NCBI GenBank assembly: GCA_031362565.1
Contig: JANLSU010000106.1
Span: 32,001-96,000, forward strand
Source: a bacterium
GTDB lineage: Bacteria > Krumholzibacteriota > Krumholzibacteriia > G020349025
Length of the DNA: 64,000 nucleotides
Reading direction: 5' to 3'
Part shown: positions 43,693-60,815 of the stretch, in pieces
How positions within the stretch are numbered: position 1 is the first letter of the stretch
Layout: each line of letters begins with the position of its first letter
The notes under the pieces: model-generated
The model's database searches: none
Told to the model about the DNA's origin: nothing
What the model saw: the letters and a program-made list of their open reading frames with translations, nothing else
Program-made: the position numbers and the translations under genes

Positions 43693-43708
43693 GGGCATGC
43701 TCTTTGCG
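43693..43708 (+). promoter_or_regulatory. Candidate sigma54 (-24/-12) promoter
   Basis: GGGCATG-CTCT-TTGCG: GG(43694-95)-N10-GC(43706-07), close to TGGCACG-N4-TTGC. Confidence 0.55.
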
Positions 43709-43904
43709 CGACGACCTGCACCGGGGCCCTTGGCCGCACCCTCGACGTGTGGCCGGGAAACCGGCGGGTCGTTCGCGCCCCGACGCTAAATCCCTGCGAC
43801 GCATGAACTGGGTCGAGCCACGCGTCGATGGCCGCCAGCAATCCCGGAATAGCGCATCGCACCTTCCGGGATTCGTGGTTGCGTCCCGCACAGGGAGTTC
43901 GCGA

Positions 43905-46900
43905 GTGTTGGATTTCTTGTCCCGCCGATGGTCGCTTTGGATCGTGGGTGCAGCCATCGTCCTGGCCGGACGGTCGGCCGGCGCCCAAGGCTTTTTGTCA
44001 CTGCGCATCGAGACCGCACCGGGCGGCAATGCACCGGATCTTGCGTCGACGACGCGCGTCGCGGGCGATTCGCTGCGGCTCTTCGCGGCGACTTACGATT
44101 TTCTGGGATTCTACGCCGGGCCGGCGGCCGTCGATTGGTCGATCATTCCCGGTGGCGCGACGCTCGACGCCACACAAGGGACGACAACGCTGGTGCAAAC
44201 GAGCCTCACCGGCCAATTCCACGTCCAAGCTGTCATGGACGGCACGACGGCCGACACCGGCAACATCACGGTCGTACCCGGACCCCCCTCAGGCCTGGCG
44301 GCTTTCGCATCGCCGGCGTTCGGCGCGCCTGCCATCACGTCGCTGGCTCTCTCGGCCGATTCAAGCCTCGTGCTCTACACTGGCAGCTACGACAAATTCT
44401 CGAACTGGACGGGACCGATCGACGTCGCTTGGTCGCTCGATGCGCCGATCGCCGCCGTCACGCCGTCGCATGCAACGCTCACCGTGCTCGACCCGCGGCG
44501 CACGGGGAACGGCCACCTGTGGCTCGATGCGCCGTCGTTGCCGCGCCTCGATCTGCCACTCGCGGTGACCCACGGCCGGATTGCGTCACTGCTCGTCTCC
44601 ACCACGCCGGGCGGTACGCCGCTCGCCGACACGACACTCGTCGCCGGCCAAACGCTGCATCTCGAGGCGCGCGCCGCCGACGCCGACGGCAACTCCGTGA
44701 CGCCATTCGCCGGCGCCACTTGGTCGGCGACCGGCACTGGACTCGCTCTCGGTGCCGTGAACGGCGTGCAAACGGACGCCCTCGCATCGCTTCCCGGCAG
44801 CGCGCGCATTGTGGCGACCGCCGGCGCCATCCAAACGAGTACGGGGATCATCCGCATCACCGCCGGCATCCTCGCACGCTTGCGCGTGTCGCGCGCTCCG
44901 GACACGTATGTCGCTGTCGATCCGGCGACCGTCGACGCCGATCAAAATTTCGAATTGTTCGCACTCGGTCAAGATGCCGCCGGCCATTGGCTCGGACCGG
45001 TGAGCGCGACGTGGACGAGCACGGACGCCGCCGTGTTGCACTCGCCGACGACGACCGGGCCGAGTGCGGTCGTCGATTGTGCGCGCATCGGCACCGCCCG
45101 CCTGCGTCTGACGGGCGCTGGACTCGCCCCCGACAGTACCGGCGCCGTGCAAGTCACGCCGGGCCGGTTCGCGCGCCTGACCATCGAATCACTCGGCGAC
45201 GGCACCGGCAGCGAGATGGGCGCCCTCGGCTTCTCGGCGGATTCCGTCATCGCCTTCCACGCCGTCGGACGCGACGCGGACGGCAATTTCGTCGGCGCAC
45301 GCAATGCTCTGTGGTCGCTCACCGGTCCCATCGGTTCGTTGTCCACGCCGCTGGGTCCGGACGTGGTACTCCTGGGCGAACATCCGGGCACCGCGCTTCT
45401 CACCGCCGTCGACGGCATCGAAACCGATGTTGCGGGCCCGATCACCGTCACCGCCGGCGCGCCGTATCGCCTGCGGGCCGAAGACAGTCTTGGCTTGGCG
45501 CTCGCGCCGCGCGCTCTCGCGCCGGGCGAAACGGCGAGCGCGGTCGCGATGACCCTCGATCGCGACGGCAACCAGCTGACTGCGGCGCCGGTGACTTGGG
45601 GCTGGCTCGGCGATGCGCTGGCGCTCCTGCCGGGCAGCGCCGCGCCGCAATACAACTGGACCGCGGGCCGGGTCGGCCAAGGCCGGCTCGTGCTGGCAGC
45701 TCCCGGCCTGATGGCCGACACGAGTGCGACGTTCACCGTCGTGGCGGGTTCACCCGCGAGGCTCGAAATGCGCGACGCATTGGGACTACCGGTGGGGGCG
45801 CGCACCTTGTCGTGCGATGCGCTTCTCGAACTGCATGCATGGGCTCTCGATGGAAGTGGCAACGAGCTCGGACAGGTGCCCGTCACATGGAGCGTGCTCG
45901 GCACGGCGGGCAGCGCCACCGTAGCACCGCTTGCAGGTTCGGCGACGGTATTGCGCCCGGTCACTCCAGGTGTCGTCCGTGTTGCGGCACTGCATGGCAG
46001 CGGGGTCCAAGCGCAGTCCGGCGATCTGACTCTCGTTCCCGGACAGATCACGCGCGTGACAATCGAGACCGCAGCCGACGGCAGCGGATCGCGCCTGGCG
46101 TCGCGCGGCCTCGCGGCCGGTGATCTGCTGCCGCTCTTCGCGGTCGGCCGCGACGGCCAGGGCAATTTCGTTGCGCCGGTGAATGCCAACTGGTTCGAGT
46201 CGGGCGGCATCGGCACCTTGAGCGTGACGCAAGGCACCGCCACGATTCTGCTCGCCGAGCACCGCGGCCGCGGCCGCGTGACGCTGACCGTGCCGCTCAT
46301 CGATGGCGACGAGACCGGCATTCTCGACGTCACACCCGGACCGGTGGCGGCACTTGGCATCGAACGTTCGCCGGCCGGTCCGGCCGACGCGCTCGGCACG
46401 GCGACGGTGAGTGTCGATGATTCGCTGATGGCCTTCGCAGTGGTGCGGGACGTGTTCGGGAATTGGATTGCCACGGTGCCGGCATTCTGGAGTGTGACCG
46501 GCCCGGCGGGCGCGGCGCAGATTTCCAGCCCCGGCCCGGCAACCGCAACCGTGCTACGGCCGCAGCATCCGGCGCAAGTGCAACTCACCGCGACGTGGAA
46601 CGGATTCGCGGCACTCTCCGGCCCGCTCGCCCTCGTCGTTGGACGCCTCGCCACGGTTGGCATCGAGACGGCGGCCGATGGCAGCGGCTTCGCGATCGGT
46701 AATCGCACCTTGGGCGCCGGTGAAGTGGTCGCGTTGTACGCCATCGGCCGTGACGCGCTCGGCAACTTGACCGGTGCGGTGACAGCGGCGTGGAGCGTCG
46801 TCGGCATCGGTGGAACGCTCGACACGGCGTGGCAGAGCGCGGCGCGTTTCACCGCCGACCGGCCCGGCCTGTGCCATGTGACGGCCGCCTACCCGGGGGT

Positions 46901-49900
46901 GGGTTTGGCGACGACCGGTGCATTGACGGTCACTGCCGGCACGCCCGCGTCACTCGTTCTCGAGCGGGCGCCCGGCGATCCATTCGACCCCTTCGACACC
47001 ACCGCACTCGCGGCCGGCGATTCCGTCGAGGCCTACGCGGTGCTGCGCGATGGACTTGGGAACTGGGTGGGCAATGTCGTCGCAACGTGGAGTGTTCTCG
47101 GGAGTCCCACGAGCGCGATCTTGAATCCGACCGCGGCGGGTGGCGTTGCGCTGCAGGCGCGCCATCCGGGAAGCGTGCGTTTGCAGGCGACGTGGAATGG
47201 CCGCGACGCGGTGAGCGGGACAATCGATCTCGGCGCCGGCGCGCCCGCCGGTACGTTTATGATGAGCTTGACGCCCAACACCCTACGGGCCGGTGGACCG
47301 TTGCCGGCGCTCGGCAACGGTGGCCCCGTCACGGACGCATGGGGCAATGACGTCGCCGACGGCACGCGCATCGATGTGCGTTTGACGGGCGCCACGGGTC
47401 TCGCCGGCGAGGATCTCGATCCGGTGCGTGCCGGCGTGCAGCGCCCGACGAGCGCCGGGCACTTCGTCTTCACGCTCGTGCCGGGCGCCCTTGCGGGCCC
47501 GGCGACCGTCGATGCAACGGCGGGGACGGCGGCCGGCCGAGCGGCGATTGCCTTGTTGCCGCCGATCGGCATCGGCGTGCTGGCGGGATCGTTCACGCCG
47601 ATCGAATGGTTGCGTGGCGCGCCGTTTGCAGCCCACTTGACGCTCGTGAATCCCGATGTGCTGGCGCTCGACCTCGCGACGGCAGAACTGCGGTTGGACG
47701 ACGGCAACGGTGGCGCGATTCAAACCTCACTCGCCGCGCCGGTCACGCTCCAGCCGGGCATGGCAACGGGTGTCGATTTTGTGTCGCTCGATACGCCCGG
47801 CGCGCTCCGCGCCGGACGTTACACGCCACGCTTGCACGTCACCGGCCAGGACCAGCTGGGGTCGCCGTTCGATCTCGAGATCGGCACCGCCGGTGCGACA
47901 CTCGATCTGGTGGATGGCGCCGTGACCCAGGTGACCGGCCATGCGCCGCTCCGCCTGACGCAGGGAACGCCGGTGCACTTCACCGTCGATGTTCTGAATA
48001 GCGGCGATGTTGCCGTGCAGCTCGATGCGGCGCGTTCGCTCCTGCAGGGCGGCGCGTTCGCGGCGGCGCTGGCCCCCGGGAGTGCCACGACGCTCGCCCG
48101 CGGCACTGTCACCCGGCTCGATTTCGTCACCACCATTTGGCCGCTTGGCGCGACGGTGGGGGATGTGCCGCTCGATCTCGAACTGCACGGCACCCAAACC
48201 GGCGGCGCCTTCGATGCGTCGGTGGCGAGCGGCACGGTGCGCGTCGATGCGACGGCGGCGTTGATCGCCGACAAGGGTGCACTGACGCCCGTCCTGGTGC
48301 CGCAAGGTGCGAGCCCGGCGCCGCGGATCACGGTGCAGAACGCTGGTGGCAGTGCCGTGACCCTGAATACCAACACGCAAGTGCAAATCGCCGGCCGCGC
48401 CGGTGGTCTGGTGACACCGGTTCGCGTCGGACCCGATTCCGCCGCGATCCTCGATTTCGCGCCAGTGGATCTCGGCGGCCTGCCGGCCGGACTGTACTCG
48501 GTGTGGTTGTCGGCACAGGGGACGCAGAATGGCGCCGCGTTCGCGCAAGATGTCGCCTTGGCCGACAGCCTCACGCTGTTTGCGCCGGCGGCGCTCACCA
48601 TCTTGGGGATTCAGCCGAGCCAGGCGACGGTCACGGCCGGGCAGACCGCGTCTTGGCTGCTGCGCGTCGTGCTGTCGAATAGCGGTGCGACAGCATACCG
48701 CATCGATGCAGCCGATGTGCACATCGTGTTGGGCGGCATCGACCGCACCGCGACCTACACGATGACGCACCAAAAACCCTTTACCAGCGCGTTGCCACCC
48801 GCAGCCCGGGATACGCTCGATTTCTTGGTGACACAAACCGGCCCCGATGCTGGACTCGCGACTCTCGAAGCCGCGGTGCAGGCAACCGATCTCACCACCG
48901 GACTGCCCGTCGAGGCCAACACGTTCACGGCTGGAAAGGGCAGTCTCCGGGTCCAGAACCCGGCGATCGCCGCGGCGGGCGTGTTGACCCTGTCGCAGCC
49001 GGCCGTCGTCGCCGGCCAAACAGCGCCCGTGGAAGTGACGCTCACGGTGCGCAACGCCGGTGAAGCGATCCTCGATCTCGATCCAGCGTCGCTCGCGGCG
49101 AGCTTTGTCACCGCGCCGGCGATCGCGGTCGTGCCGGCGAGTTACACCGGCGGGCCCGGGCTCGCAGCCGGTGAATCGATGCTGCTGCGCTGGACCTTGG
49201 GCCCTTTCACCGCCGCGCCCGGCAGTCTGCAGTTGACCGCGACCCCGCAATTCGTGGAACGGAATCGCGCCGCGTTGTTGACCTGCAGCGCGAGCACCAA
49301 CGTGCCGGTGCAAGGGCCGGCGGCGGTCGTTGTCAGCCAGGCCAATGCGCCGGCGAGCGTCACCGTGGCACAGGCGCAAGCTTGGACGGCGCGCTTCCAA
49401 CTCACGAACTCCGGCGGCAGTAGCGTGACGGTCGCGACACCGCGCCTCGTGTTTGCGGCGCCGGGCGCCGCGACGACGTTCGGGGTCACGCCACCGCTCA
49501 CCTTCGAAGACGGGCGGCCGTTGCAGCTCGCACCAGGTGCGCAGGGGACTCTCGCCTTCGTTATCAACCGAACCGATGCGACGGCGCGCCGGGTCACGAT
49601 CGGCGTCGCGTGTGACGCCGTCGAAGAACTCTCGGGACGCGCGTTGACGATCGCCAACGGTGCGACCGCGACCGTGAGCGTGCAAGCGCCACCCGCCGTG
49701 CAGTTGGTGGATGCATCCCTCGCGCCGGCGCGCGCCGCGGTGGGCCAGGTCGTGGGGTTCACGCTCGATGCCCAGAATACCGGTGAGTCGCGCTTGGATC
49801 TCGATGCAACCCAGTCTTGGGCCCGGCTCGTGGATGGCACGACGCTGCATTCGTTGATGGCGCCGGCAGTGCTCCCAGGCGGCGGGACGGCGACGCTGCG

Positions 49901-52900
49901 CTTCGCTGCGGCGGCACTCGATGGGGCTCCGGGCGCCGGGGCGCTGCGCCTGCACCTTGCCGGCACCGAGAACGGCAATGCGTGGAGCGCCGATCTCTCG
50001 ACCGGCGCCGTGCTGCGGCTCGATGCGGCCGCCCAACTCGAAATTACCGCCGTGCGCCCCTCCCGGCCACGCGTCACTCGCCGGCAAACTGTCGCTTGGA
50101 CGGTGCGGGCGGCGGTGCGCAATCATGGCGGCGATGCGGTGCTGGATGCCGCAACGCTCGGATTCACGCTCGGCGCGGCGGACGTCGCGACTGGGTTCAC
50201 GGTCACCGCTCCGGCCCACTTCGAATCCGGCACCACGCTCCTGGTTGCCGGTGCAGCTGACACCTTGCGCTTCGACGTGACGCGAACTCTGGACGCCATC
50301 GGTCTGGTCGCTCTGGACGCGACGCTCCACGCCCACGATGCCAATAGCGGCACGCCGCTCGTGGTGACGAGCGTCGGTCAGGCGCGTGGCAGCGTGCAGA
50401 TCGATGCCCCGGCAGAGCCGGTCATTGCCACCCTGCAAGCGAGTCAAGCGCTCGTGAGTGCCGGTCAACGATCCGCGTGGCGCGTGCAAGTCACGGTGCG
50501 CAATGACGGCGGGTCGCCGTGGCGCGCCGACTGGACACGCGCGGCGCTCGTGCTCGGTGCGGCGCCCGATGACAGCATTGCCTGTGGAGCACCGGCCGCA
50601 CCCCAACTGTTGGATGCCGGCGAGTCCGAAGGCGCGGTCTTCACGATTCACCGCACCGGCGCCGAACTCGGCGCCGTCGGACTCGTTGCAAGCCTGCCAG
50701 GTGTCCAGGAATCGGACGGCGCGGCGATTGCCGCTCTCCCGAATGCGCCGGTCACCATCGTCGTGCAGCGTCCTGCCGCGGCCAGGCTCGAAACCGCGAC
50801 GGCGCACACCCAGCGCCCCGGCACTGCCAACACCGGTCAAACCGTCCGCTTGGACATCACGGTTCGGAATAGCGGCGAAGCCGATCTGCGGCGTGTCGCC
50901 GTACAGGCGCACGCGGATGGTGCGACCCCGGCGGACAGCCTTCTCGTTGCGGCTGTACCGGGCGGTGGAAGTGTCACGTTGCACTCCCAAGTGCGCTTAC
51001 GTGACGATGCCGGACCGGCGGCGATTCAATTCACGGTCCTGGAAGCGTACGATGCCAACGATTCCTTGACGACGGCCGCCTTCGGTGCGACCACCGCGGC
51101 CCACCTCGACTTGCGCGCCGAAACGCCCGGCAGCTTGGCGCTGACCCTGGTTCCGAGTCAGGGGCGGGTGTCCGCCGGACAGGCGCGCGAGTGGTCGCTG
51201 GCCGTGCAGGTGGAAAATGTCGGCGAAGAACCGCTGGTGCTGCGCGCGCCGCGCCCGAGCGATATCGAGTTCCAGCGCAGCAACGTCCCGCAAAGCGACT
51301 ATGTCGTGTTGGCGCCCGCCGCTTTCGACGAAGGCGGCCTGACGCTCGCCGGCGCCGGCCAAGGGACGCTGCGCTATCGGATCACCCGCACCGGTGATGG
51401 CGGCGGCAGCATTGCGATCACGGCCACGGCGAGTGCGCTGCACGCCAACGATGCCACCGCCCCCGACATGGCAGCCACCGCTGCCGCGACGATCGCCGTC
51501 GATGCAGAACCCAGTTTGCGAATTCTCTCGACCGATACCCGGACCTGGCGCCGGGACCGCGGTTTCGACGACGACCGCGTCGATGCCGGGCAGGCCTTCG
51601 CGGTGCGCGTCGTCGTGGAAAATACCGGCGGCACCCAACTGGACAGCATCGGCGTCGATGTCGAGTCGCAGCGCGGCAATTCGCATCTCGATGGCCGGCG
51701 CTGGCTCGACACGCTCGCACCGGGACAGCGCGGCGAATTGGAGTTCGCGGTCGTCGGCGGCACTTGGTTGTCGCAGCCCGGCCTGCCGGAAGCTTTCACG
51801 GCGCACATCGCCGCCGCCCAGGATCTGAACACGGGCATCTCGGTTCTGCCCGGCGCGGCCGTCGACGCCACGACTTTCGCGTATATCGAGACACCCGCAC
51901 AGGTCGCGCTCACGGCCTGGATCGACGCTCCCGATGGCGCTCGCGACGGCGTTCTCTCGGCCGCCCAAGAGTTCATTCTCGCGGCGCGGCTCGACAACGA
52001 GGGCAGCGCGGATTTCTCGGCGTCCGGGCGTGTGGCGCTCGGGTTGCCGGCCGGATATGCCATCGTCGATGGCGATCCAGAGCAATTTGCCGACGCCGGC
52101 CAAGTGATCCGGTGGACGTTGCAGGCCGGAGCGGCGGCGCACGCGTTCAGCGATACCTTGGTCATTGCGCTGGCCGCCGTGCCGCTCGACGAGAATCGTG
52201 GCACCCCAGCGATCGTGCGGGTTGGCACGGCGACGGTCGCCGTCGCGGTGCGCGCCACCGGTGATCTGGCCGCCCTGCTGACGCGTGGCGGTGCGGCGGC
52301 GGGTGGCTCGATCTTCGTTTCAACGGGTCAGACGCTCGACCTCGATGTTGTCGTCCGCGGCGATGCCGACTTGATCGGCCGCGAAGCGGATCTGGTGTTG
52401 CCGGCCGGCTGGTCGCCGGCACCGGGGAGTCCGCCGAAACTCGATCTGCCACCGGGCGCCGAAGCGCGTACGACCGCAGCCGTGCAAGTCGGTCATGCGC
52501 CAGGCATGGCCCAAGTCATCCTGCATGCAACCGCCGTCGACCGGAACGACGAATCGCCGCGCGCCGCGCTGGATACCCTGCAATTGCAAGTCGTTCGCGC
52601 CGCACGGCTGGCGGTGGATGCGGCAATCGTCGCGCCCGACGAGGCGCGCGATGGGCGGCTCCTGCCGGGCCAAGCGTTTCAAGTCCGCGCCTGGGTGCGC
52701 AACCAGGGTGACGCGGCGGTCGTCGCGGCGCCGGGGAATACGTCCGGCGGCACGCTCCGCCTCATCGACGTGCCCGCGGGGTACGGCGTGCAGGCCGCCG
52801 AACAGCCGTACGTCCTGACCGGCCGTGAAGCGAGCATCACGTGGAATCTCACCGCGCCTCCGGTCGTGCGGCCGGGTGCGGAGACGATGCGGATCGTTTT

Positions 52901-53768
52901 CGCCGCTCTGCCGTTCGACGCCAACGCCATGCAGGCCGTCGGGCTCGATCCGGATTCGACGATCGCCCGTTGCGTGGTTTCGGTCGCCAACGACGCGGTT
53001 GCCGTCGACGCTACCGCCGAGCCAGCCACCGTGGTGGCGCCGGGCGAGCGCGACGTCACGCTCTTGCACCTGCTGATCACCAATCAGGCTGAAGCCGCGG
53101 TGCGCATCGACGCCGTCGGTGTCGCACCCCTTGCCGACGGCGTCATTCTGCCCGATGCATTCGCCCACTACGTGCTGACGCGCGACGACGATGCGGCGAT
53201 CCGCGTCGAAGCGCTGCCGTCCGGCAGCTCCCCGGTCTGGATCGATTTCGGCGCCGCGGGCAATGCGGCGATTCTCGCGCCGGGCGCCACGGCACGTTGG
53301 ACGTTGCGCGCCGACATCGCGACATCGGCCGCGGCGCGCACCGTCAGTGCGGCATTGCGGACCAACGCCGCCGGTGCAGTGCTCGTACGGGCCAGTGAAT
53401 CGAGCTCGGGCGCCGCGGTGCCGGTGCACGCCGATGCACGCGCCACGCTGGCGTCGGCAGCGGTGCGGGTTTTGGGCGCCGCGCTCGCCGCATACAACGC
53501 GCCGAATCCGTTTCACGCCGAACGCGAACCGACCACCATTCACTACCAAGTGGACGGCGCGAGTGATGTCACGATCCGCATTCAAACCCTGCAAGGCGCC
53601 CTCGTGTGGGAAACGCACCGGCACGAGGCTGCCGTTGGGACGGCGCTCCGCGGCGTCGAATGGGACGGCCGGAACGGCACCGGACAGCCGGTACGGAATG
53701 GTGTGTATGTGTGCTCCGTGCAAGTCGGCACGCGGGCGACGCGGTTCAAAATCGCGGTGACCCGCTAG
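43905..53768 (+). CDS. Giant (~3,290 aa) secreted Ig-repeat surface protein with FlgD-Ig/T9SS-like C-terminal domain
   Basis: GTG/TTG start after AGGGAG (ORF open from 43704); signal ending SAGAQ; ~11 repeats with DxxGN...WS, then CARDB-like V.N.G repeats; tail YNAPNPF...WDGRNGTGQPVRNGVY...KIAVTR. Confidence 0.88.
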   Translation: MLDFLSRRWSLWIVGAAIVLAGRSAGAQGFLSLRIETAPGGNAPDLASTTRVAGDSLRLFAATYDFLGFYAGPAAVDWSIIPGGATLDATQGTTTLVQTSLTGQFHVQAVMDGTTADTGNITVVPGPPSGLAAFASPAFGAPAITSLALSADSSLVLYTGSYDKFSNWTGPIDVAWSLDAPIAAVTPSHATLTVLDPRRTGNGHLWLDAPSLPRLDLPLAVTHGRIASLLVSTTPGGTPLADTTLVAGQTLHLEARAADADGNSVTPFAGATWSATGTGLALGAVNGVQTDALASLPGSARIVATAGAIQTSTGIIRITAGILARLRVSRAPDTYVAVDPATVDADQNFELFALGQDAAGHWLGPVSATWTSTDAAVLHSPTTTGPSAVVDCARIGTARLRLTGAGLAPDSTGAVQVTPGRFARLTIESLGDGTGSEMGALGFSADSVIAFHAVGRDADGNFVGARNALWSLTGPIGSLSTPLGPDVVLLGEHPGTALLTAVDGIETDVAGPITVTAGAPYRLRAEDSLGLALAPRALAPGETASAVAMTLDRDGNQLTAAPVTWGWLGDALALLPGSAAPQYNWTAGRVGQGRLVLAAPGLMADTSATFTVVAGSPARLEMRDALGLPVGARTLSCDALLELHAWALDGSGNELGQVPVTWSVLGTAGSATVAPLAGSATVLRPVTPGVVRVAALHGSGVQAQSGDLTLVPGQITRVTIETAADGSGSRLASRGLAAGDLLPLFAVGRDGQGNFVAPVNANWFESGGIGTLSVTQGTATILLAEHRGRGRVTLTVPLIDGDETGILDVTPGPVAALGIERSPAGPADALGTATVSVDDSLMAFAVVRDVFGNWIATVPAFWSVTGPAGAAQISSPGPATATVLRPQHPAQVQLTATWNGFAALSGPLALVVGRLATVGIETAADGSGFAIGNRTLGAGEVVALYAIGRDALGNLTGAVTAAWSVVGIGGTLDTAWQSAARFTADRPGLCHVTAAYPGVGLATTGALTVTAGTPASLVLERAPGDPFDPFDTTALAAGDSVEAYAVLRDGLGNWVGNVVATWSVLGSPTSAILNPTAAGGVALQARHPGSVRLQATWNGRDAVSGTIDLGAGAPAGTFMMSLTPNTLRAGGPLPALGNGGPVTDAWGNDVADGTRIDVRLTGATGLAGEDLDPVRAGVQRPTSAGHFVFTLVPGALAGPATVDATAGTAAGRAAIALLPPIGIGVLAGSFTPIEWLRGAPFAAHLTLVNPDVLALDLATAELRLDDGNGGAIQTSLAAPVTLQPGMATGVDFVSLDTPGALRAGRYTPRLHVTGQDQLGSPFDLEIGTAGATLDLVDGAVTQVTGHAPLRLTQGTPVHFTVDVLNSGDVAVQLDAARSLLQGGAFAAALAPGSATTLARGTVTRLDFVTTIWPLGATVGDVPLDLELHGTQTGGAFDASVASGTVRVDATAALIADKGALTPVLVPQGASPAPRITVQNAGGSAVTLNTNTQVQIAGRAGGLVTPVRVGPDSAAILDFAPVDLGGLPAGLYSVWLSAQGTQNGAAFAQDVALADSLTLFAPAALTILGIQPSQATVTAGQTASWLLRVVLSNSGATAYRIDAADVHIVLGGIDRTATYTMTHQKPFTSALPPAARDTLDFLVTQTGPDAGLATLEAAVQATDLTTGLPVEANTFTAGKGSLRVQNPAIAAAGVLTLSQPAVVAGQTAPVEVTLTVRNAGEAILDLDPASLAASFVTAPAIAVVPASYTGGPGLAAGESMLLRWTLGPFTAAPGSLQLTATPQFVERNRAALLTCSASTNVPVQGPAAVVVSQANAPASVTVAQAQAWTARFQLTNSGGSSVTVATPRLVFAAPGAATTFGVTPPLTFEDGRPLQLAPGAQGTLAFVINRTDATARRVTIGVACDAVEELSGRALTIANGATATVSVQAPPAVQLVDASLAPARAAVGQVVGFTLDAQNTGESRLDLDATQSWARLVDGTTLHSLMAPAVLPGGGTATLRFAAAALDGAPGAGALRLHLAGTENGNAWSADLSTGAVLRLDAAAQLEITAVRPSRPRVTRRQTVAWTVRAAVRNHGGDAVLDAATLGFTLGAADVATGFTVTAPAHFESGTTLLVAGAADTLRFDVTRTLDAIGLVALDATLHAHDANSGTPLVVTSVGQARGSVQIDAPAEPVIATLQASQALVSAGQRSAWRVQVTVRNDGGSPWRADWTRAALVLGAAPDDSIACGAPAAPQLLDAGESEGAVFTIHRTGAELGAVGLVASLPGVQESDGAAIAALPNAPVTIVVQRPAAARLETATAHTQRPGTANTGQTVRLDITVRNSGEADLRRVAVQAHADGATPADSLLVAAVPGGGSVTLHSQVRLRDDAGPAAIQFTVLEAYDANDSLTTAAFGATTAAHLDLRAETPGSLALTLVPSQGRVSAGQAREWSLAVQVENVGEEPLVLRAPRPSDIEFQRSNVPQSDYVVLAPAAFDEGGLTLAGAGQGTLRYRITRTGDGGGSIAITATASALHANDATAPDMAATAAATIAVDAEPSLRILSTDTRTWRRDRGFDDDRVDAGQAFAVRVVVENTGGTQLDSIGVDVESQRGNSHLDGRRWLDTLAPGQRGELEFAVVGGTWLSQPGLPEAFTAHIAAAQDLNTGISVLPGAAVDATTFAYIETPAQVALTAWIDAPDGARDGVLSAAQEFILAARLDNEGSADFSASGRVALGLPAGYAIVDGDPEQFADAGQVIRWTLQAGAAAHAFSDTLVIALAAVPLDENRGTPAIVRVGTATVAVAVRATGDLAALLTRGGAAAGGSIFVSTGQTLDLDVVVRGDADLIGREADLVLPAGWSPAPGSPPKLDLPPGAEARTTAAVQVGHAPGMAQVILHATAVDRNDESPRAALDTLQLQVVRAARLAVDAAIVAPDEARDGRLLPGQAFQVRAWVRNQGDAAVVAAPGNTSGGTLRLIDVPAGYGVQAAEQPYVLTGREASITWNLTAPPVVRPGAETMRIVFAALPFDANAMQAVGLDPDSTIARCVVSVANDAVAVDATAEPATVVAPGERDVTLLHLLITNQAEAAVRIDAVGVAPLADGVILPDAFAHYVLTRDDDAAIRVEALPSGSSPVWIDFGAAGNAAILAPGATARWTLRADIATSAAARTVSAALRTNAAGAVLVRASESSSGAAVPVHADARATLASAAVRVLGAALAAYNAPNPFHAEREPTTIHYQVDGASDVTIRIQTLQGALVWETHRHEAAVGTALRGVEWDGRNGTGQPVRNGVYVCSVQVGTRATRFKIAVTR

Positions 53769-53772
53769 GAGG

Positions 53773-55689
53773 ATGATGATGCTGGCACGGAAGTCCTGGA
53801 TCCTACTCGCGTGCATGCTCGCGACGACCGCGCATGCCGGCGGCACCGCCAATGGCGGGACCGAATCGAATCTGAGCTTGGGAGCCACGAGCCGCGGGAT
53901 CGGACTCGGCGGCGCGTTCCTGGCGAGCGTCGACGACGCGAGCGCCGTGTACTGGAATCCGGCCAAGCTGGCGAGCCTCGAACGCGGCAGCGTCATTCTG
54001 ACTCACATGCCGATCGGCTTCGGTGACGCGACTCTGAGTTTTGCCGGCGTCGCGTATCCGACCCTCGGTGCCGGCACGTTTGCTTTCGGGTTCCAGCACC
54101 TCTCCACCGATGGCATTCAGGCCTACGACGCCACGAGTCAGGCGCTCGGCAGCCTCGAATATTCGGAGACCGCGCTCTATGCCGGTTATGCCCACGCGAT
54201 CGCCGCCGGCACGCTGGGTGCGCTGCAAGTCGGCGCGACCGCGAAGACGTTCACTCAAAGTCTAACGCCTTGGTCGAGCACCGGCGCCGGACTCGACTTG
54301 GGTTTGGCGTGCACGCCGCGCCGCTTTCCGGATCTCGGCTTGGCGTTCGTGTGGCGGGATGCGATCGCCCCGCATGTGCGGCTCGATCAAACCTCGGATG
54401 CCGCACCCGCGACATTGCAATTCGCCGGCACCTGGCGGACCCGCGCCACGCGTACGACAACGCTGGCGCTGAACGCCGGTGTCGATCACACCGGCCCGCT
54501 CGGCTGGTCGCCACGCCTCGGACTCGAAGCCGGTTATGGTTCGCATCTGCAGTTGCGGCTCGGTTCGTCCCGCAACGGCGTCGCCTTCGGCCTCGGCGTG
54601 ACCTGGCAGAATGCGGCGCTCGACTATGCATTCCTGGGCCACGAGTCGGCGGCCACCCAGCCGGTCTCGGTGCGCACGGAGTGGGGCATGCGGCTCGAAA
54701 ACCGCCTCGCGGCGCGCACGACGGCGCGCGAGGCGGCGCTGCGGGCGCAATTGCAAGACCGGCTCGAGGCCCGCCTCGATGCGGCGCAGGCGGCATTCGA
54801 TCGTGGGGACTATGCGGCAGCGGTGGACGAGTGGAAGGTCGTGGCCGGGTTGGATCCCGCCGACGAACGGGCCGAGCGTGGCATTCAAGCCGCGGGTGCC
54901 AAGCTGGCGGAAACCCAGGCGCGCGATCTCGCCGATCGCGAACAGGTGGCGGCGCACACCGCCCAGTTCGAACTCGGGCTGCGCTACTACGGCCAGAGCG
55001 AGTATGCGTTGGCGCGCGACGTGTGGGCGCAACTGCGCCAGCAGGACCCGGCCAACACCGAAGTGCAACGCTATCTGGACAAGAACGAGAAGGCGTTCCG
55101 CGACCAGCTCCGGGCCCAATCCGACGAAGCGCACCGGCTCGAAATCGCCGGCGACTGGGTCGACGCACTCGCGGCCTGGACCCGCATTCGGGCCACCGAC
55201 AATCAACGCGCCGACGCCGAAGCAGCGCTCGAACGCTGTCGCATGGGGCTCGAACGGCAAAATGCCCGCCGCTGGGATGCCAGCCGCGGCTCGAATGCGA
55301 ACGTCAACGCCGGTACCAACGCCATCGCCAAGGCGGCGCCGGTATCGAAAGCCGCCGCCGCACCGTTCCGCGACGCCGTCGCGGCGTATTCGAGCGGTGA
55401 GATCAGCCGCGCCGTGACGTTGTTGCGCGAGGTTCGCCGGTTGGATCCCGCCAATCAGGAAGCCGAGCGCTTGTTGGCGAAAGCCGAGCGCCAACTGCTG
55501 CCCTTGGGTGACGAGGATCGCGCCCGGGTGCGCGAGATGTACCTGCGCGGGATGAGTTTCTTCACCGCCAATCAATTCGACAAGGCGATCGAAGCCTGGT
55601 CCAAGATTCTCGATGTCGATCCGGGCAATACGAGCGTGTACCAGAACATCCGCGAAGCCCGCGCGCGCCTGCGTGCCCTGCAGCCTTGA
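53773..55689 (+). CDS. PorV/PorQ-family barrel fused to C-terminal TPR repeats
   Basis: AGGAGG RBS; RGIGLGGAFLASVDDASAVYWNPAKL; LDYAF; TPR helices (LDP..ERA, LDPANQEA, AIEAWSKILDVDPGN). Confidence 0.88.
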   Translation: MMMLARKSWILLACMLATTAHAGGTANGGTESNLSLGATSRGIGLGGAFLASVDDASAVYWNPAKLASLERGSVILTHMPIGFGDATLSFAGVAYPTLGAGTFAFGFQHLSTDGIQAYDATSQALGSLEYSETALYAGYAHAIAAGTLGALQVGATAKTFTQSLTPWSSTGAGLDLGLACTPRRFPDLGLAFVWRDAIAPHVRLDQTSDAAPATLQFAGTWRTRATRTTTLALNAGVDHTGPLGWSPRLGLEAGYGSHLQLRLGSSRNGVAFGLGVTWQNAALDYAFLGHESAATQPVSVRTEWGMRLENRLAARTTAREAALRAQLQDRLEARLDAAQAAFDRGDYAAAVDEWKVVAGLDPADERAERGIQAAGAKLAETQARDLADREQVAAHTAQFELGLRYYGQSEYALARDVWAQLRQQDPANTEVQRYLDKNEKAFRDQLRAQSDEAHRLEIAGDWVDALAAWTRIRATDNQRADAEAALERCRMGLERQNARRWDASRGSNANVNAGTNAIAKAAPVSKAAAAPFRDAVAAYSSGEISRAVTLLREVRRLDPANQEAERLLAKAERQLLPLGDEDRARVREMYLRGMSFFTANQFDKAIEAWSKILDVDPGNTSVYQNIREARARLRALQP

Positions 55690-55715: not shown

Positions 55716-58700
55716 ATGAGCAGTCGCAACGGACGGACCGAGCGCCTCGAGATCGCCGCCGACGAGCGCCATCTCTCGGACGTTCGCGACTTCATCGATC
55801 GCACCTGTGCCGCGTGTGGCTTTGCGCCGCGGGCGATCGCCAATATCCGGCTGGCGGTCGACGAGGCCTGCACCAATGTCATCAAGCACGCCTACCCGAA
55901 TGGCGGCCCCGGTGCGGCAAGCGCCAGGCTCGGCATCGCGGCCGGCGCGCACCGCGGCTGGCTCGAGGTGCGCATCGTCGATCAAGGCAAGCCGTTCGAA
56001 GGCCAGATCGACCTGCCCCAGCTTGGCGAACTGGTGGAAGCGCGACGCAAGGGCGGCTTCGGCATGTTCCTGATGCACCGGCTCATGGACGAAGTGCGCT
56101 ACGAAACGACCCCGGCAGGCAACGAATGGATTCTGCGCAAGCGCCTGCCGCAACCGCCTTCGACCTTTGCGCGGCGCATGCGCCTGCGTTACGCGCTGCA
56201 GGCGAGCCTCGGGATTGTCGCCATCAGCGTCTTGGCGGTCACGCCACTCTGGCTGCGCGAAGGGCGCCAGCGTGAGCGCGCCGACTTGCAGGCACTGCGG
56301 GCGCTGGCTTTCGGTCTCGCCGAAGCGGCGCGGCCGGCACTCGTACAGCGCGCCGAACTCACCCCCGAGCAAACGCATTTGTTCGAGGCGGTACTGGCGC
56401 TCGGGCGCGAGGAGCCACGCATCCTGGCGGTCGATGTCGTGGATCGCGCCGGAACGATTTGGGCGGCGGATCGCGCTGCCGCCACCTTCACCCACTTCAT
56501 CGAACCGGCCGGCTTGACGGCGGCCGATGCCGACGGGTTCCGGCAGGCGCGCGAGCGCGTCGACGGGCACGCGGTCCTGCATCTCGCAGTGCCGGTGCGG
56601 ATGGGCAACGGCGCGACCGAAGTCGGGACGGTGCATCTCTCGGTGCGCCGCGACGAGATCGAGGCCGAAGTGCGCGCCGCGCGCGCCCGCTTGGCAAGTG
56701 GGGCACTGGCCGTGGATGCGCTGGCCCTGCTGCTCGTCGGCGCCGCCCTCACGGCTTTCCTGCGGCCCTTGCAGCGGCTCGTCGACGGAGTTCGCGGCAT
56801 GGCGTCCGAAGGCGCTGATTTGGCGGAAGACGGCCCCGGCGAGATCGGTTCCATCGCGGCGGCCTTCAACGACATGAATGCCCGTTACAAGGCCGCCCGC
56901 GAAACCGCCGCCGACCACGAACGCTTGCAGCAAGACCTGCAGGTCGCGCGCGAGATTCAGACGGCGATTCTGCCGCAGCACGTGCCCGACATTGCGGGCT
57001 ATGAGATTGGCCGCTTGTACCGGCCGGCCGGCGAAGTCGGCGGCGACTACTACGATTTCTTGGATGTAGGCGACGGGCTGACCGGCGTCGTCGTGGCGGA
57101 TGTCGCCGGCAAGGGCGTGCCGGGGTCGCTCGTCATGGGCATGTTGCGGACGGCTCTGCGGCTCGAAACCCGGCGCAACGCCAGCGCCGGCGACGTGCTG
57201 TCGCGTCTGCATCAATTCCTCGCCGCCGACATGCGCAAGGGAATGTTCGTGACGATGTTGTACGTGGTGCTCGACACGCGGCACCGGGTCGTGAGCTACG
57301 CTTCGGCCGGCCACACGCCCATGGTGCTGTATCGCGCCGGCAAGGACGAAACCTTTTGTTTGTCGCCCAAGGGACTGCCGGTCGGCCTCGCCGGATCGGA
57401 CACCGCAATGTTCGAAAAGGAACTCGACGTGGAGCGTCTGCGGCTGCGGACCGGTGATCTTTTGTTGCTCTACACCGACGGCATCACCGAGGCCACCAAT
57501 GCAGCGGGCGAGGCGTATGGCGAAGAGCGGCTGGTGGCGGCCGTCAAACGCTTCGGGCGCGAATCGGCGGACGATTTCGTTCGGGCGCTCGAGGCGGACC
57601 TCGCCGAGTTCACTGGCGGTATGGCGCTCACTGATGATCTGACGCTGGTCGCGATCAAGGAGAAGCAGGGAGCGCCGGAAGTCGGCGGCGAAACGTTTCG
57701 CAAGCTCGTTGACGCCATCGACGCCAAAGGTGTGCCGGTGGCGGATGCGTGCCGGCGGTTTGGCGTATCACCCTCGACCTACTATCGTTTGAAGCGCGTC
57801 GCGGGCGATGACAGCGAACCGCAACAGTTGTCGATGGAAAAGGGTGCCGCACTTCGCCGTCTGGCCATGGCGCGCCGCGACTTGGGTGCGCGCGAGATCG
57901 CCGCTTTGCTGCGCACCCCGGAGTGGGGCAGCATCGACCTTGCACCGACGCGCATCCACGTCGAATTGCGCCGCATGGGAATCGACCTGCCGGTGAGTGC
58001 AGTGCCGGCGATGCCGGCGCCGGGTTCAGCTGCGGCGCTGCCGATGGCGGATGACACCGCAACCGAAGCTCCAAACAGCAACGGCGCCGACAGCAGCGCG
58101 GTTGCGATGTCGGAAACATGGCTCGATGCAGGCGGATTGCGCGGTCTCCTTGCAGCGCCGGCCGCCGGTCCGGGCGCCGCGCTGTTGCAACTCGAGGGTT
58201 GTATCGACAGTACGTCATGCGATGCGCTGGAGAGCCTGCTCGCGACGGCAACCGGTGCCGGTCACGCTCTGGTCGTCGATCTGGCCGAAGTGGCGTACGT
58301 GAGTAGTCGAGGCTGGGGCCTGTTGGCGGCCGCGAGTGCGCGCGCCGTGGGTGGCTTGGCGCTCGCCGAGATGCGTTCCGATGTCTTCGACGTCTATCGA
58401 ATGCTGGGTTTCGAGTCGATTGTACCGTCCGCGGCCGACCGCGATGCGGCGCGGGCGCGTCTGTTGCCGGCGGCTCGCAAGGCGGCTTCGAATGCATCGC
58501 CCGGCGCCGCATCCAAGTCGAAGGCCGCACCCACGACGGCGATCGTGCCGTGCAAGGTGGCGTTCGATGCCGCCGCCCCGGACGATGCCGGTGCGTCGCT
58601 GCGCTGCCGCGTTGGGCACGCGGGGCGCGATGGGGAAGTGGCGGTGATCGCCCTCGAAGGCATCCTCGACACGGTGAGCGCGCAATTGTGTGCCCGGATG

Positions 58701-59519
58701 TTCTCCGAACTCGCGCTCCGCGAACGCACCGCGGTGCTGATCGACCTGTCGTGCATCGAGTTCGTGAGCAGTGCCGGTTGGGGATGTCTGACGGCGTTCG
58801 CAGCCGAGCGCGCCCGCATCGGCAGCGCCGTGCGCTTGTTCGGGATGAGCGCCTCGGTGGCGCGCATCTATGAATTGCTGCACTTGGCAGCGGTGCTGCC
58901 TTCCGACGACATCCTGGCGGACGCGTTGGTGGCCTGCGGCGCCACCGAAGTTGCAGCTCCGGCGCGCGTCGACGCGACCACGGTGGCGCCCACCGCGTCA
59001 CCAAGCCAACCGGTTGGTGCGGCGCACGGTGCTAGTGCGGTGGGCATCGAAATCGAAATCGGCGCTTTGCAGGCGCGACTCGAACCCTATGGAACCAGTG
59101 GCCGGGCGCATCGCCTGGCGCTCCGCGGCACGTGGCGTGGTGACGCGGGAGCGTCGTTCGAGGCCTGGCTCGGCGCACATGCGACGCCGGTCGACCTGCT
59201 GCTGGTCGACGGCCGGGGCCTCGAAAGCGTCGACGCAGAAGCCTGGGATGTGTTGCGCCGGCACGCCGAGAGTCTTGCGACGCACGGCGGCCAAGTGTGC
59301 GTGGTGGCGAGCGCCGCAACGGCGCCCGCAGTCGACGCCGGCCTGCACGTCCACCGTTCGGTGGTGGAGGCGCTACGCACCCAGCAGAGCCGCCCGGTAC
59401 GGCTGGAGACCGTTCGCGTCGAAGACAGCGATTTCAGCAAGGACGCGGAGATCCGGCGTGAGGGCTGGAACGCTTATGTCGACCTGCTCCGGCAGGCATT
59501 CCGAGAGGACGCCCTGTGA
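55716..59519 (+). CDS. Multidomain membrane partner-switch protein: RsbW-like kinase - TM - periplasmic sensor - TM - HAMP - SpoIIE/PP2C - tandem HTH - STAS x2-3
   Basis: LAVDEACTNVIKHAY, DQGKPF, GGFGMFLM; two TMs; PLQRL...EIG.IA.AFN.M; GGDYYD, VADVAGKG, YTDGITE, DDLT; ACRRFGVSPSTYYR; YVSSRGWG, FVSSAGWG. Confidence 0.9.
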   Translation: MSSRNGRTERLEIAADERHLSDVRDFIDRTCAACGFAPRAIANIRLAVDEACTNVIKHAYPNGGPGAASARLGIAAGAHRGWLEVRIVDQGKPFEGQIDLPQLGELVEARRKGGFGMFLMHRLMDEVRYETTPAGNEWILRKRLPQPPSTFARRMRLRYALQASLGIVAISVLAVTPLWLREGRQRERADLQALRALAFGLAEAARPALVQRAELTPEQTHLFEAVLALGREEPRILAVDVVDRAGTIWAADRAAATFTHFIEPAGLTAADADGFRQARERVDGHAVLHLAVPVRMGNGATEVGTVHLSVRRDEIEAEVRAARARLASGALAVDALALLLVGAALTAFLRPLQRLVDGVRGMASEGADLAEDGPGEIGSIAAAFNDMNARYKAARETAADHERLQQDLQVAREIQTAILPQHVPDIAGYEIGRLYRPAGEVGGDYYDFLDVGDGLTGVVVADVAGKGVPGSLVMGMLRTALRLETRRNASAGDVLSRLHQFLAADMRKGMFVTMLYVVLDTRHRVVSYASAGHTPMVLYRAGKDETFCLSPKGLPVGLAGSDTAMFEKELDVERLRLRTGDLLLLYTDGITEATNAAGEAYGEERLVAAVKRFGRESADDFVRALEADLAEFTGGMALTDDLTLVAIKEKQGAPEVGGETFRKLVDAIDAKGVPVADACRRFGVSPSTYYRLKRVAGDDSEPQQLSMEKGAALRRLAMARRDLGAREIAALLRTPEWGSIDLAPTRIHVELRRMGIDLPVSAVPAMPAPGSAAALPMADDTATEAPNSNGADSSAVAMSETWLDAGGLRGLLAAPAAGPGAALLQLEGCIDSTSCDALESLLATATGAGHALVVDLAEVAYVSSRGWGLLAAASARAVGGLALAEMRSDVFDVYRMLGFESIVPSAADRDAARARLLPAARKAASNASPGAASKSKAAPTTAIVPCKVAFDAAAPDDAGASLRCRVGHAGRDGEVAVIALEGILDTVSAQLCARMFSELALRERTAVLIDLSCIEFVSSAGWGCLTAFAAERARIGSAVRLFGMSASVARIYELLHLAAVLPSDDILADALVACGATEVAAPARVDATTVAPTASPSQPVGAAHGASAVGIEIEIGALQARLEPYGTSGRAHRLALRGTWRGDAGASFEAWLGAHATPVDLLLVDGRGLESVDAEAWDVLRRHAESLATHGGQVCVVASAATAPAVDAGLHVHRSVVEALRTQQSRPVRLETVRVEDSDFSKDAEIRREGWNAYVDLLRQAFREDAL

Positions 59520-60256
59520 GGCGCATTGCAATTGCGGCTGCCAAGGGCGGCACCGGTAAAACCACCACTGCCGTCGCACTCGCGCACGGCCTCGCGCTGG
59601 CCGGCGAGCGCGTGTTGCTCATCGATTGCGATCCACGCCGCGACTCGAGCTTGCATTTCGGCCTGTCGCCCGAACCCGGACTCGCAGCCTGGCTGCGGGG
59701 CCGTCCGGCGCGCGTCATGGAAGTGCGTGCCGGCCTCTGCGTCCTGGATAGCGGTGGCGAGGCGCTTGCCGATCTCGAACTGACACTCGGCACCGATCCG
59801 CTCGAGGAACTGCGGCTTGGGCGCGCCCTGGACACGCTGCAGGATGTCGATTATGTGGTGCTCGATTGTCCGGCCGGCGTCGGACCCATCGCGCGCGCGG
59901 CGCTCCGCGCCAGCCACGAGGTCCTCGTGCCACTCTGCGCCGACTATTTGAGTTTGGCGAGCGCCGGCCTGCTGCTCGAGCGCCTGGTCCAGATGCGGGG
60001 CACGAACGGCGCCGCGCCACGTCTTCTGGGACTCCTGCCGACATTCTATGACGCCGACGCTCCGAGCGCCCTGAACGTCGATTCCGTGCTTGCGGAACTG
60101 CACGCCGGCCGTGTCCTCCAGACGCGCATCGCGCTTTGCGATGGGCTCCGGGCGGCACCGGCACGCAGAGGCACGATCTTCGATTGCGAACCGCTATCGC
60201 GCGCGGCGTTGGACTACGTCTCGTTGCTCGACGAGGTGCGGGCTGCCGCCGCCTGA
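59516..60256 (+). CDS. Orphan ParA/Soj-family ATPase
   Basis: KGGTGKTT, IDCDP, YVVLDCP; GTGA-coupled to upstream gene; no parB in window. Confidence 0.9.
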   Translation: MRRIAIAAAKGGTGKTTTAVALAHGLALAGERVLLIDCDPRRDSSLHFGLSPEPGLAAWLRGRPARVMEVRAGLCVLDSGGEALADLELTLGTDPLEELRLGRALDTLQDVDYVVLDCPAGVGPIARAALRASHEVLVPLCADYLSLASAGLLLERLVQMRGTNGAAPRLLGLLPTFYDADAPSALNVDSVLAELHAGRVLQTRIALCDGLRAAPARRGTIFDCEPLSRAALDYVSLLDEVRAAAA

Positions 60257-60407
60257 CCTGTCACTTCTGGAGCCATCGGGTGTCCACACGGTCGCGGCGG
60301 CGGCCGCATGGTTCTGCGTGGTGTATCGCTACGGAGTGTTCCGCGCCGCCCAAGGTCGCTGGACTAAACCTTGCTTGTAGAGCCCTCGTGGCTCCAAGGA
60401 GGTGGGC

Positions 60408-60815
60408 ATGCGGTCCCTCGAGTACAGTGTCGAGACCGTGGGTGCGAAGAAGACGATCGCGATCTTGTCGCTCGACGGTTATGTCGACAGCGCGACCTCG
60501 CTGAACATGGACGAGGCTATCGACTCGATCCTGCAGCAGCGGGTCTATCAGATCGTGGTCGATTTGACCAAGGTGAGCTATATCAGCTCGGCCGGATGGG
60601 GTGTGTTCATCAGCAAGATCAAGGACATCCGTGAGAACAACGGTGGCCTGAAGATCGCGGGGATGCGTCCCGACGTCCGCGACGTCTTCGACTTGCTCGG
60701 CTTTGGCCACATCATCGAAGCCCACGATACGGTGCAGGACGCGGTCAACGCGTTCGAAACGCAAAGCGGGCGCGACAAGCGCGAGGTCGTCACCGGCGGC
60801 CGTCGCACCGTCTGA
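60408..60815 (+). CDS. STAS anti-sigma-factor antagonist (RsbV/SpoIIAA-like)
   Basis: AAGGAGG RBS; LDGYVDS, VVDLTKVSYISSAGWG, VRDVFDLLGF. Confidence 0.93.
   Translation: MRSLEYSVETVGAKKTIAILSLDGYVDSATSLNMDEAIDSILQQRVYQIVVDLTKVSYISSAGWGVFISKIKDIRENNGGLKIAGMRPDVRDVFDLLGFGHIIEAHDTVQDAVNAFETQSGRDKREVVTGGRRTV

Follow-up and report, generated by a model that had tools for sequence, protein, structure and literature searches.

A PorV-like barrel with a TPR arm encoded between a giant surface protein and a partner-switch receptor: a conserved gene module and candidate envelope-spanning signalling system in the Krumholzibacteriota

Introduction

Among the pairings known from type IX secretion systems (T9SS) are those of PorV with cargo bearing type A C-terminal domains (CTDs), of SprB (type B CTD) with PorP/SprF-like proteins, and of PorZ with PorQ. 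Partner-switch systems are widespread and their inputs are mostly unknown, and for T9SS bacteria a single case, PorA-PorY, is known in which the cell learns the fate of a surface protein. In that case the CTD of PorA, a T9SS cargo, binds in the periplasm to the sensor kinase PorY (PMC12152298), and genetic linkage of cargo and specialised shuttle has been described in Flavobacterium (PMC12618676; PMC9143113). Here we describe a five-gene locus at 43693..60815 of a 64,000-nucleotide stretch of DNA (hereafter the window; positions 32,001 to 96,000 of contig JANLSU010000106.1, assembly GCA_031362565.1) from a member of the Krumholzibacteriota. In this locus a specific giant repeat protein and its outer-membrane partner, a PorV-like β-barrel with a TPR arm (PorV-TPR), are tied to a complete phosphatase/kinase/STAS switch.

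The genes form a conserved module in an order beyond chance: all 18 relatives examined in detail share it, as do two further phylum-level groups. The arrangement occurs in hundreds of genomes belonging to at least three phylum-level groups. Its parts are of known kinds; their union appears new and is widely conserved. We found no published description of a PorV-like barrel with a TPR arm together with an all-in-one partner-switch receptor, in a literature search that missed most subscription journals, and in public annotations the barrel protein goes by no other name than 'TPR repeat protein' or 'hypothetical'.

Results and Discussion

Organization of the locus

The window has a G+C content of ~68%. 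Five genes, all co-oriented on the + strand, occupy 43693..60815, and the features of this region are as follows.

43693..43708, + strand: σ54-like -24/-12 element, GGGCAT-N5-TTGCG (consensus TGGCAC-N5-TTGCA)
43905..53768, + strand: giant secreted repeat protein, 3,287 amino acids (GTG start; the open reading frame (ORF) is open from 43704)
53466..53765, + strand: T9SS-type CTD of the giant protein (CTD part of PorU model NF033707)
53773..54690, + strand: PorV/PorQ-family outer-membrane β-barrel, residues 1 to ~306 of 638 amino acids, including the signal peptide (NF033709)
54691..55689, + strand: linker helices and TPR arm, residues ~307-638 of the PorV-TPR protein (~330 residues; TPR_2, 49.1 bits, and other TPR families)
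55716..59519, + strand: membrane partner-switch receptor, 1,267 amino acids (Pfam, hydropathy, PDB profile hits)
59516..60256, + strand: ParA/MinD-type ATPase, 246 amino acids (AAA_31, 86.4 bits; CbiA, 60.3)
60408..60815, + strand: stand-alone STAS protein of the anti-sigma-factor-antagonist type (STAS, 69.7 bits)

Only 4 nt separate the stop codon of the giant gene from the PorV-TPR ATG at 53773, and 26 nt the PorV-TPR stop (55689) from the receptor ATG (55716). The receptor stop and the ParA start overlap in a GTGA at 59516-59519, and the ParA stop (60256) is followed after 151 nt by the STAS ATG at 60408, which is preceded by AGGAGG (145 nt if a GTG at 60402 is used); the STAS stop is at 60815. 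A first-pass annotation had reported these ORFs, their common orientation and the same four junctions, and all were confirmed when the sequence was read again. Its reading of the block as operon-like in packing was supported, and its domain identities were upheld by Pfam and NCBIfam scans. No terminator-like sites were found in the intergenic gaps of the five-gene block.

Conservation within the phylum and a second copy in the same genome

The first-pass annotation had named loss of synteny in related genomes among the outcomes that would refute its proposal. The opposite is clearly seen: the genes stay together throughout the phylum, and they do so in a paralogous copy and in other phyla too. 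A receptor orthologue was present at E ≤ 1e-150 in 18 of 40 relatives, and in all 18 the PorV-TPR gene lies directly upstream of it; a giant ORF precedes PorV-TPR in each of the 16 loci with enough upstream sequence. Downstream, 14 of the 18 encode ParA, a cytoplasmic TPR protein of ~385 amino acids and two STAS genes. In the remaining four loci, all from one family, the receptor is short (~850 amino acids) and does not have the C-terminal STAS domains; ParA is missing and there is a single STAS gene. Across 208 genomes of the phylum the receptor is directly downstream of 72 of 74 PorV-TPR orthologues, the gaps between the matches being 30-748 nt and mostly 40-70; in the two exceptions the receptor is on another contig, or not among the matches listed. 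For the paralogous type described below adjacency was counted in at least 16 of 57 cases, the receptor matches listed being 150 of 288. The flanks are collinear as well in eight extended relatives, with pyruvate phosphate dikinase (PPDK) upstream and an aminotransferase downstream, and phylum synteny alone is thus not decisive.

The same genome carries a paralogous module on contig C63 (locus L047; 199-12723, minus strand), where the contig ends just past the receptor. It comprises a 2,966-amino acid giant protein with a related CTD, a PorV-TPR protein (865-amino acid frame) and a receptor of transmembrane segment, HAMP and PP2C (579-amino acid frame). In two relatives (G013, G033) the paralogue-type loci continue with one protein in which an RsbW-like kinase and STAS are joined, followed by a histidine kinase. 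Since the switch is split differently in the paralogous module, the same partnership has been kept with different fusions.

Recurrence in other phyla

A cross-phylum scan, taking one genome per species, gave 80 loci with a PorV-family gene. In 13 of these the PorV-family gene is followed by a PP2C receptor, and in every such case a CTD-like ORF also ends shortly upstream of the gene. By their record titles the 13 include Ignavibacteria and Calditrichaceae; the cargo proteins are 1,245-1,706 amino acids long with the same CTD type, and ParA is present in three of the 13. A GGDEF protein follows STAS in each of the three loci scanned for it (L063, L064, L071). By eye, from the C-termini, the Ignavibacteria-type loci continue after GGDEF with polysaccharide-export-like and chain-length-like genes. 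Also by eye, the free STAS protein of L060, L063, L064, L066 and L071 has a C-terminal extension resembling the helix-turn-helix (HTH) region of the receptor.

Around L063 (Ignavibacteria-type) a sample of 201 genomes of the class was searched. The receptor was found in 156 genomes (E ≤ 1e-90) and PorV-TPR in 125 (E ≤ 1e-40); the two are adjacent in 117 of these 125, and most of the other eight are at contig ends. Eleven genomes with a receptor and no listed PorV-TPR were probed, and every one has a TPR match directly before the receptor. tblastn detects the barrel in six of these loci; among the other five, L142 has a 697-amino acid frame. In five of the 11 probed loci (L133-L137) there is a TPR frame of ~300-385 amino acids with no barrel and no CTD cargo upstream, and at least three of these barrel-less proteins (L135-L137) have a hydrophobic N-terminus. 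In these five the module seems to have been split or reduced. Since the barrel-less TPR protein still adjoins the receptor, the TPR part keeps its place without the barrel, and this pairing fits a TPR arm that would be the part working with the receptor.

In the window a CTD-bearing ORF ends ~100 nt before the barrel match, and the same arrangement is seen in 36 of 76 distant loci (L053-L132; CTD-like ORF ≤ 400 nt upstream of the PorV-family gene), some of which are titled Elusimicrobia, Zixibacteria, KSB1 and WOR-3. There is no PP2C receptor in 23 of the 36. A cargo protein with its own PorV-like barrel seems to be a common pairing well beyond the Bacteroidota.

The PorV-TPR protein

In a PDB profile search the barrel protein matched PorV (6h3i_F) at E 8e-11, and orthologues from four relatives (G019, G038, G016, G013) score 93.0-114.7 bits on NF033709. 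The six-frame search with this model gave 87.6 bits for the protein of the window, or 91.3 when neighbouring in-frame matches are included. An AlphaFold2 model built with 27 sequences (predicted local distance difference test (pLDDT) 86.7) places a β-barrel at residues 72-304 and helices at 308-636. The top Foldseek hits of the model are Flavobacterium PorV chains from T9SS translocon complexes, 8gl6_F (E 1e-10) and 6h3i_F (E 6.2e-9), with TM-scores of 0.64-0.66 normalised to the target, followed by FadL-family barrels. The modelled barrel has a FadL-type fold resembling that of solved PorV. Because both ends of a PorV-like barrel face the periplasm, the TPR arm is expected to be periplasmic.

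The giant repeat protein and the secretion system of the host

The GTG at 43905, which has a GGGAG 7 nt upstream of it, is the likely start of the giant gene, and position 43803 offers an alternative ATG. Read by eye, the N-terminus after this GTG is signal-peptide-like, with basic residues, a hydrophobic stretch and AGA-Q, and this stretch was not flagged in a Kyte-Doolittle hydropathy window scan. Self-BLAST showed no internal repeats at E ≤ 1e-3; the repeats were seen with iterated hidden Markov models, as 11 Ig-like repeats of ~97 amino acids each (residues 25-1093) and at least 12 CARDB-like repeats (residues 1349-2972; CARDB Pfam 36.7 bits). Open frames of 4,386-4,864 amino acids in three relatives (G013, G014, G038) mean that the repeat region differs by more than 1,000 residues among relatives. 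The giant frame of a further genome (G031, locus L022) is broken near its end.

The CTD, in the last ~100 residues, matches positions 999-1081 of NF033707 (E 3e-8); TIGR04183 was absent from the NCBIfam scan of the giant protein at E ≤ 0.01. It is conserved in 15 orthologues, with the motifs YPNPF, WDGRN and VRNGVY.C. Among the 80 CTD-like hits of the genome its best non-self match is the CTD of the paralogous giant, and the CTDs of the two giants are reciprocal best matches (41% identity; 59 bits vs 48.5 for the next), which fits a cognate pairing of cargo and barrel.

The host encodes a T9SS translocon and sortase. SprA reached a summed 448.9 bits (cut-off 200), and PorU is present in three copies of 482.9-538.5 bits (cut-off 420). 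These three full-length copies are on contigs C85 and C131, the two on C85 being ~1.2 kb apart and beside a canonical PorV. The genome has 11 PorV-family matches, eight of them strong, and 80 CTD-like C-termini. Among the eight strong genes, only the two TPR-armed ones (in the window and on C63) have a CTD ORF ending just upstream. An SprB-type gliding-motility operon was considered for the locus and rejected, as GldL and GldM were undetected, by models that were silent in controls as well, and the barrel is of the PorV type and not of the PorP/SprF type.

The partner-switch receptor

The receptor begins with an RsbW-like kinase (residues 13-142), followed by a transmembrane segment (157-181), an sCache sensor (~182-323), a second transmembrane segment (324-353), HAMP and PP2C (453-648), the transmembrane segments being assigned from hydropathy. 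After PP2C come an HTH region (664-702) and two STAS domains (824-899, 973-1062); a third stretch is STAS-like but degenerate, and the protein ends in the C-terminal tail GWNAYVDLL. The Pfam scores are 165.1 bits for SpoIIE, 92 for HATPase_c_2, 70.9 for STAS and 27.3 for HAMP, and the PDB profile hits include RsbW (6m36_A, E 4.5e-26) and, on the PP2C part, Rv1364c (3ke6, E 2e-20). The SiaA equivalog model NF038263 gave 66 bits, far from its cut-off of 700. Across 19 orthologues the PP2C aspartates D444, D462, D588, D640 and D641 are invariant, as are the kinase positions E50, N54, H58 and G113/G114/G116. An SSxGWG motif occurs in the receptor STAS and in the free STAS protein, and its serine presumably corresponds to the phosphoserine position of SpoIIAA/RsbV. 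Many PP2C-type regulators are encoded in the host genome, with 12 matches to the receptor query, and the window itself has a separate FHA-GAF-PP2C (SpoIIE) protein on the minus strand at 3558-5231.

Of 27 family members, 17 match sCache_3_2 over the sensor region, with E 5.8e-7 at best and E 0.022 for the protein of the window. The model of this region (pLDDT 86.0) has a PAS/Cache-type fold. The best fold match is WalK (9a5d_A, with a query-normalised TM-score of 0.75; for the isolated domain, 5is1 and 4ywz), and further matches are DctB, KinD, DcuS, CitA and the periplasmic domain of chlamydial RsbU (6mab).

The ParA-like ATPase and STAS proteins

The ParA-like protein has a deviant Walker A motif, KGGTGKT, at residues 10-16, and no equivalog model matched it at cut-off. 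The gene is present in 14 of the 18 relatives' loci and missing from the four with a short receptor; ParA is an accessory part, missing from short forms of the module. Its presence goes with a receptor tail motif, [WF]xxY[GE]xx[LM], usually with a basic end, which was found in all 18 ParA-linked receptors (one as a variant) and in none of nine ParA-less ones, few independent events lying behind the figures of 18/18 and 0/9. From these sequences the association suggests that ParA engages the C-terminal tail of the receptor. The free STAS protein scored 69.6 on TIGR00377 (cut-off 53.45) and has the motif ISSAGWG; relatives have one or two STAS genes at its position. Between ParA and a vWA gene, relatives have genes for the cytoplasmic TPR protein and for a second STAS protein, where the window has a 145-151-nt gap and one STAS gene.

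The putative σ54 promoter

The element GGGCATGCTCTTTGCG begins at 43693, the base at which the first-pass annotation had started the locus behind a σ54-like promoter. Eight of its 11 positions agree with TGGCAC-N5-TTGCA, and GG and GC fall in register. In six of eight extended relatives there is a 9/11 match (GGCAT-N5-TTGC) 30-110 nt before the likely start of the giant gene, the background being 0.046 such matches per kb per strand, and in the remaining two 9/11 matches occur farther upstream, where their giants probably begin. The promoter proposal thus gains from the relatives, and the match in the window, at 8/11, is itself weak. A stricter pattern (at most one mismatch) found six sites in the window, a chance level, with none near the giant gene; a σ70 promoter scan of 43000-62000 returned 0 sites. 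The rpoN gene is on contig C38, and the genome has 22 matches to enhancer-binding proteins, none of them on the contig of the window. The type-2 module on C63 of the same genome (G000) has a weak match, TGGAAC-N5-GTGCA.

Neighbouring genes

The conserved block extends beyond 60815, as a vWA protein and a lamin-tail-domain (LTD) protein follow in all eight extended relatives. The neighbouring features of the window are listed here.

60972..63173, + strand: vWA membrane protein, 733 amino acids, with transmembrane segments at both ends (VWA_2, 21 bits, below cut-off)
63205..64000, continuing off the window to ~64857, + strand: LTD protein (LTD, 53 bits)
39407..41680 and ~41750..42171, + strand: two CBM48/AMPK1_CBM proteins (Pfam)

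The vWA protein has matches in 8/8 extended relatives and was not found in the modules of other phyla; the membership of the vWA and LTD proteins in the module is uncertain. So is that of the CBM48/AMPK1_CBM pair, for which tblastn matches lie upstream of the giant gene in six of the eight. Between the CBM48 genes and the giant gene is a DUF362 gene (42226..43347) which has no counterpart there in the eight extended relatives and is probably a lineage-specific insertion. Three ORFs without a Pfam match (574-, 349- and 560-amino acid frames) occupy 35217-39398, between PPDK and CBM48. In tblastn searches of the corresponding place in relatives, 34529..35644 gave a weak match in six of eight, 36800..37846 in two of eight and the third in none. 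The middle ORF has a weak PorV_fam N-terminal-motif match (37019-37144) and the last ends in ...GWF; the three may be further outer-membrane proteins.

Proposed function and its alternatives

With moderate confidence we propose that this is an envelope-spanning signalling module of T9SS-bearing bacteria of the Fibrobacteres-Chlorobi-Bacteroidetes (FCB) group, in which the barrel and its TPR arm would feed a Cache-PP2C switch. The barrel would take the CTD of the giant protein and hold it at the cell surface, like the shuttles or anchors of the PorV, PorQ and PorP types, and the TPR arm would reach the receptor Cache domain in the periplasm and act as a co-sensor. The state of the cargo (present, loaded or lost) would alter the phosphatase/kinase balance and with it the phosphorylation of STAS, which in its unphosphorylated form would act on an output partner. 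For the window the ParA-like ATPase is the probable partner, likely by binding the C-terminal tail of the receptor; relatives may use the cytoplasmic TPR protein, a GGDEF cyclase or a histidine kinase as the output. The giant gene would probably be transcribed from the σ54 promoter. Because of the GGDEF and polysaccharide-export neighbours in relatives, the evidence suggests that the module governs attachment or biofilm decisions. A more specific version would make it a touch or attachment sensor, in which a giant adhesin delivered by the T9SS keeps its hold on its own PorV-like barrel, with load on the adhesin or its loss passing mechanically through the TPR arm to Cache, HAMP and PP2C, then to STAS, and on to ParA positioning, cyclic di-GMP or a histidine-kinase output; this is a tentative picture, which we rate as possible rather than probable.

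A number of observations weigh against the proposal. The copy in the window is without the ~385-amino acid cytoplasmic TPR gene and the second STAS gene of most relatives, and only generic TPR hits, with no orthologue of the former, were found elsewhere in the genome. Its receptor has a third STAS-like stretch without the SS motif and a tail without the basic end, and Pfam and NCBIfam scans of the cluster found no sigma factor gene and no clear output gene. The sensor is of the sCache type, whose solved relatives mostly bind small molecules, so that the signal may be something other than the TPR arm. The counts come from related genomes and are non-independent. In the family of the window itself, four of six genomes (G001, G003, G005, G006) have only the paralogous type; in G004 the PorV-TPR match is of paralogue strength, and G002 has none, with a C-terminal fragment of the receptor. 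PorV-TPR scores 87.7 bits on NF033709, just below the curated cut-off of 90, and the giant CTD 21.9 bits on FlgD_ig, below the cut-off of 27. Searches of the genome for GldL/GldM (TIGR03513, TIGR03517, PF12081) found nothing, but these models were silent in controls too. As to the promoter, σ54 matches of 8/11 strength are common (100 in the window, both strands), which makes the element of the window a weak one, and no σ54-like element was found before the cargo genes in six Ignavibacteria-type loci and in four of five type-2 loci.

The genes might share regulation without any contact across the envelope. The barrel would then be a mere shuttle or anchor, the TPR arm would dock on the T9SS or the cell wall, and the Cache domain would sense a small molecule or a CTD waiting in the periplasm, all genes serving one surface or biofilm programme. 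This explanation, which we regard as a real contender though on the whole unlikely, draws on the solved sCache-fold relatives of the sensor, which bind carboxylates, amino acids and the like, and on the TPR domains of the T9SS parts PorE and PorW. The pairs of CTD protein and PorV-family barrel that lack a receptor (23 of 36 loci, in many phyla) indicate that the cargo-barrel pairing can stand alone, and the binding of the PorA CTD to PorY is a precedent for the sensing of a CTD (PMC12152298). What a pure shuttle role would leave unexplained is the barrel-less TPR protein adjoining the receptor in five of 11 probed loci with no CTD cargo nearby. Nor does it sit well with the regularity with which TPR-armed barrels pair with receptors (72/74 and 117/125), when the six other strong PorV-family genes of the genome have neither TPR arm nor adjacent CTD ORF.

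Signalling in the opposite direction would use the same anatomy as the outside-in route. The switch would read a cytoplasmic or membrane cue and gate the barrel through the Cache domain and TPR arm, so that the giant protein is released, retained or secreted. A receptor with its own kinase, phosphatase and substrate domains could integrate internal signals, and HAMP-linked helices can in principle transmit in either direction. The output-type genes of relatives (GGDEF, histidine kinase) suit outside-in signalling better, and we know of no precedent for a PP2C receptor controlling an outer-membrane protein; inside-out signalling is in our judgement quite improbable. That the genes have no functional link, and merely keep an inherited order in a slowly rearranging lineage, would agree with the collinear housekeeping flanks (PPDK, aminotransferase) in the eight extended relatives. 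Against this, the genome holds a paralogous copy of the core at another place, the core recurs in other phyla with different flanks, and its gaps between matches are mostly 30-100 nt, all of which makes a merely inherited order extremely improbable.

Comparison with known systems

The arrangement resembles the T9SS shuttle and anchor barrels in that a PorV-like barrel is encoded directly after a large CTD-bearing surface protein. It differs in that the barrel has a ~330-residue TPR arm and is followed by a PP2C/RsbW receptor, neither of which is mentioned in the accessible text of the Flavobacterium reports. With respect to cargo type, the CTD of the giant resembles type A (the PorU-CTD region) and not type B. 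If the proposed signalling holds, the module would be like PorA-PorXY-SigP of Porphyromonas in that a T9SS cargo informs a sensor in the inner membrane. The Porphyromonas sensor is a two-component histidine kinase, with no dedicated barrel-TPR protein involved, whereas the one here is a partner-switch phosphatase/kinase with STAS domains.

On the cytoplasmic side the nearest likenesses are to SiaABCD, HsbR-HsbA-HsbD and SypE-SypA, which combine a HAMP or membrane PP2C, an RsbW-type kinase and a STAS substrate and act on biofilm rather than on a sigma factor. As with SiaD and HsbD, a GGDEF cyclase comes after the module in relatives. The receptor is similar to SiaA in HAMP-PP2C architecture only. 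Unlike these systems the module has kinase, phosphatase and up to three STAS domains in one membrane protein, and its input side (barrel, TPR arm and giant cargo) has no counterpart in them. Chlamydial RsbU is alike in its periplasmic domain, which is among the fold matches of the sensor (6mab), and Mycobacterium Rv1364c in its PP2C part. Rv1364c joins phosphatase, kinase and STAS in one chain. Both differ in having no outer-membrane partner or secretion cargo, and in the module the kinase is N-terminal, before the transmembrane segments.

WalK, with its partners YycH and YycI, is the best fold match of the sensor. Its Cache-type domain is reported to be controlled by accessory proteins and not by a small ligand, and would, if so, be a precedent for a protein co-sensor; it differs in being a Gram-positive histidine kinase with partners that are membrane-anchored and not outer-membrane barrels. 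ParA/MinD-type ATPases are engaged by a short peptide on their cargo, and as in the positioning systems ParC/ParP and PpfA/TlpT a ParA-like ATPase is encoded here with a receptor bearing a short conserved terminal peptide. The module differs from them in that its short forms do without ParA.

In logic only, the proposed route is also like FecA-FecR-FecI, where a regulator in the inner membrane receives its signal from an outer-membrane barrel that has a periplasmic extension. Pfam and NCBIfam scans found no TonB-dependent receptor, FecR-type anti-sigma factor or extracytoplasmic function (ECF) sigma factor in the cluster. In the module the extension is a C-terminal TPR arm and the transducer a partner switch, which makes it a candidate means of carrying signals from outer membrane to cytoplasm that is built without TonB/ECF or classical two-component parts.

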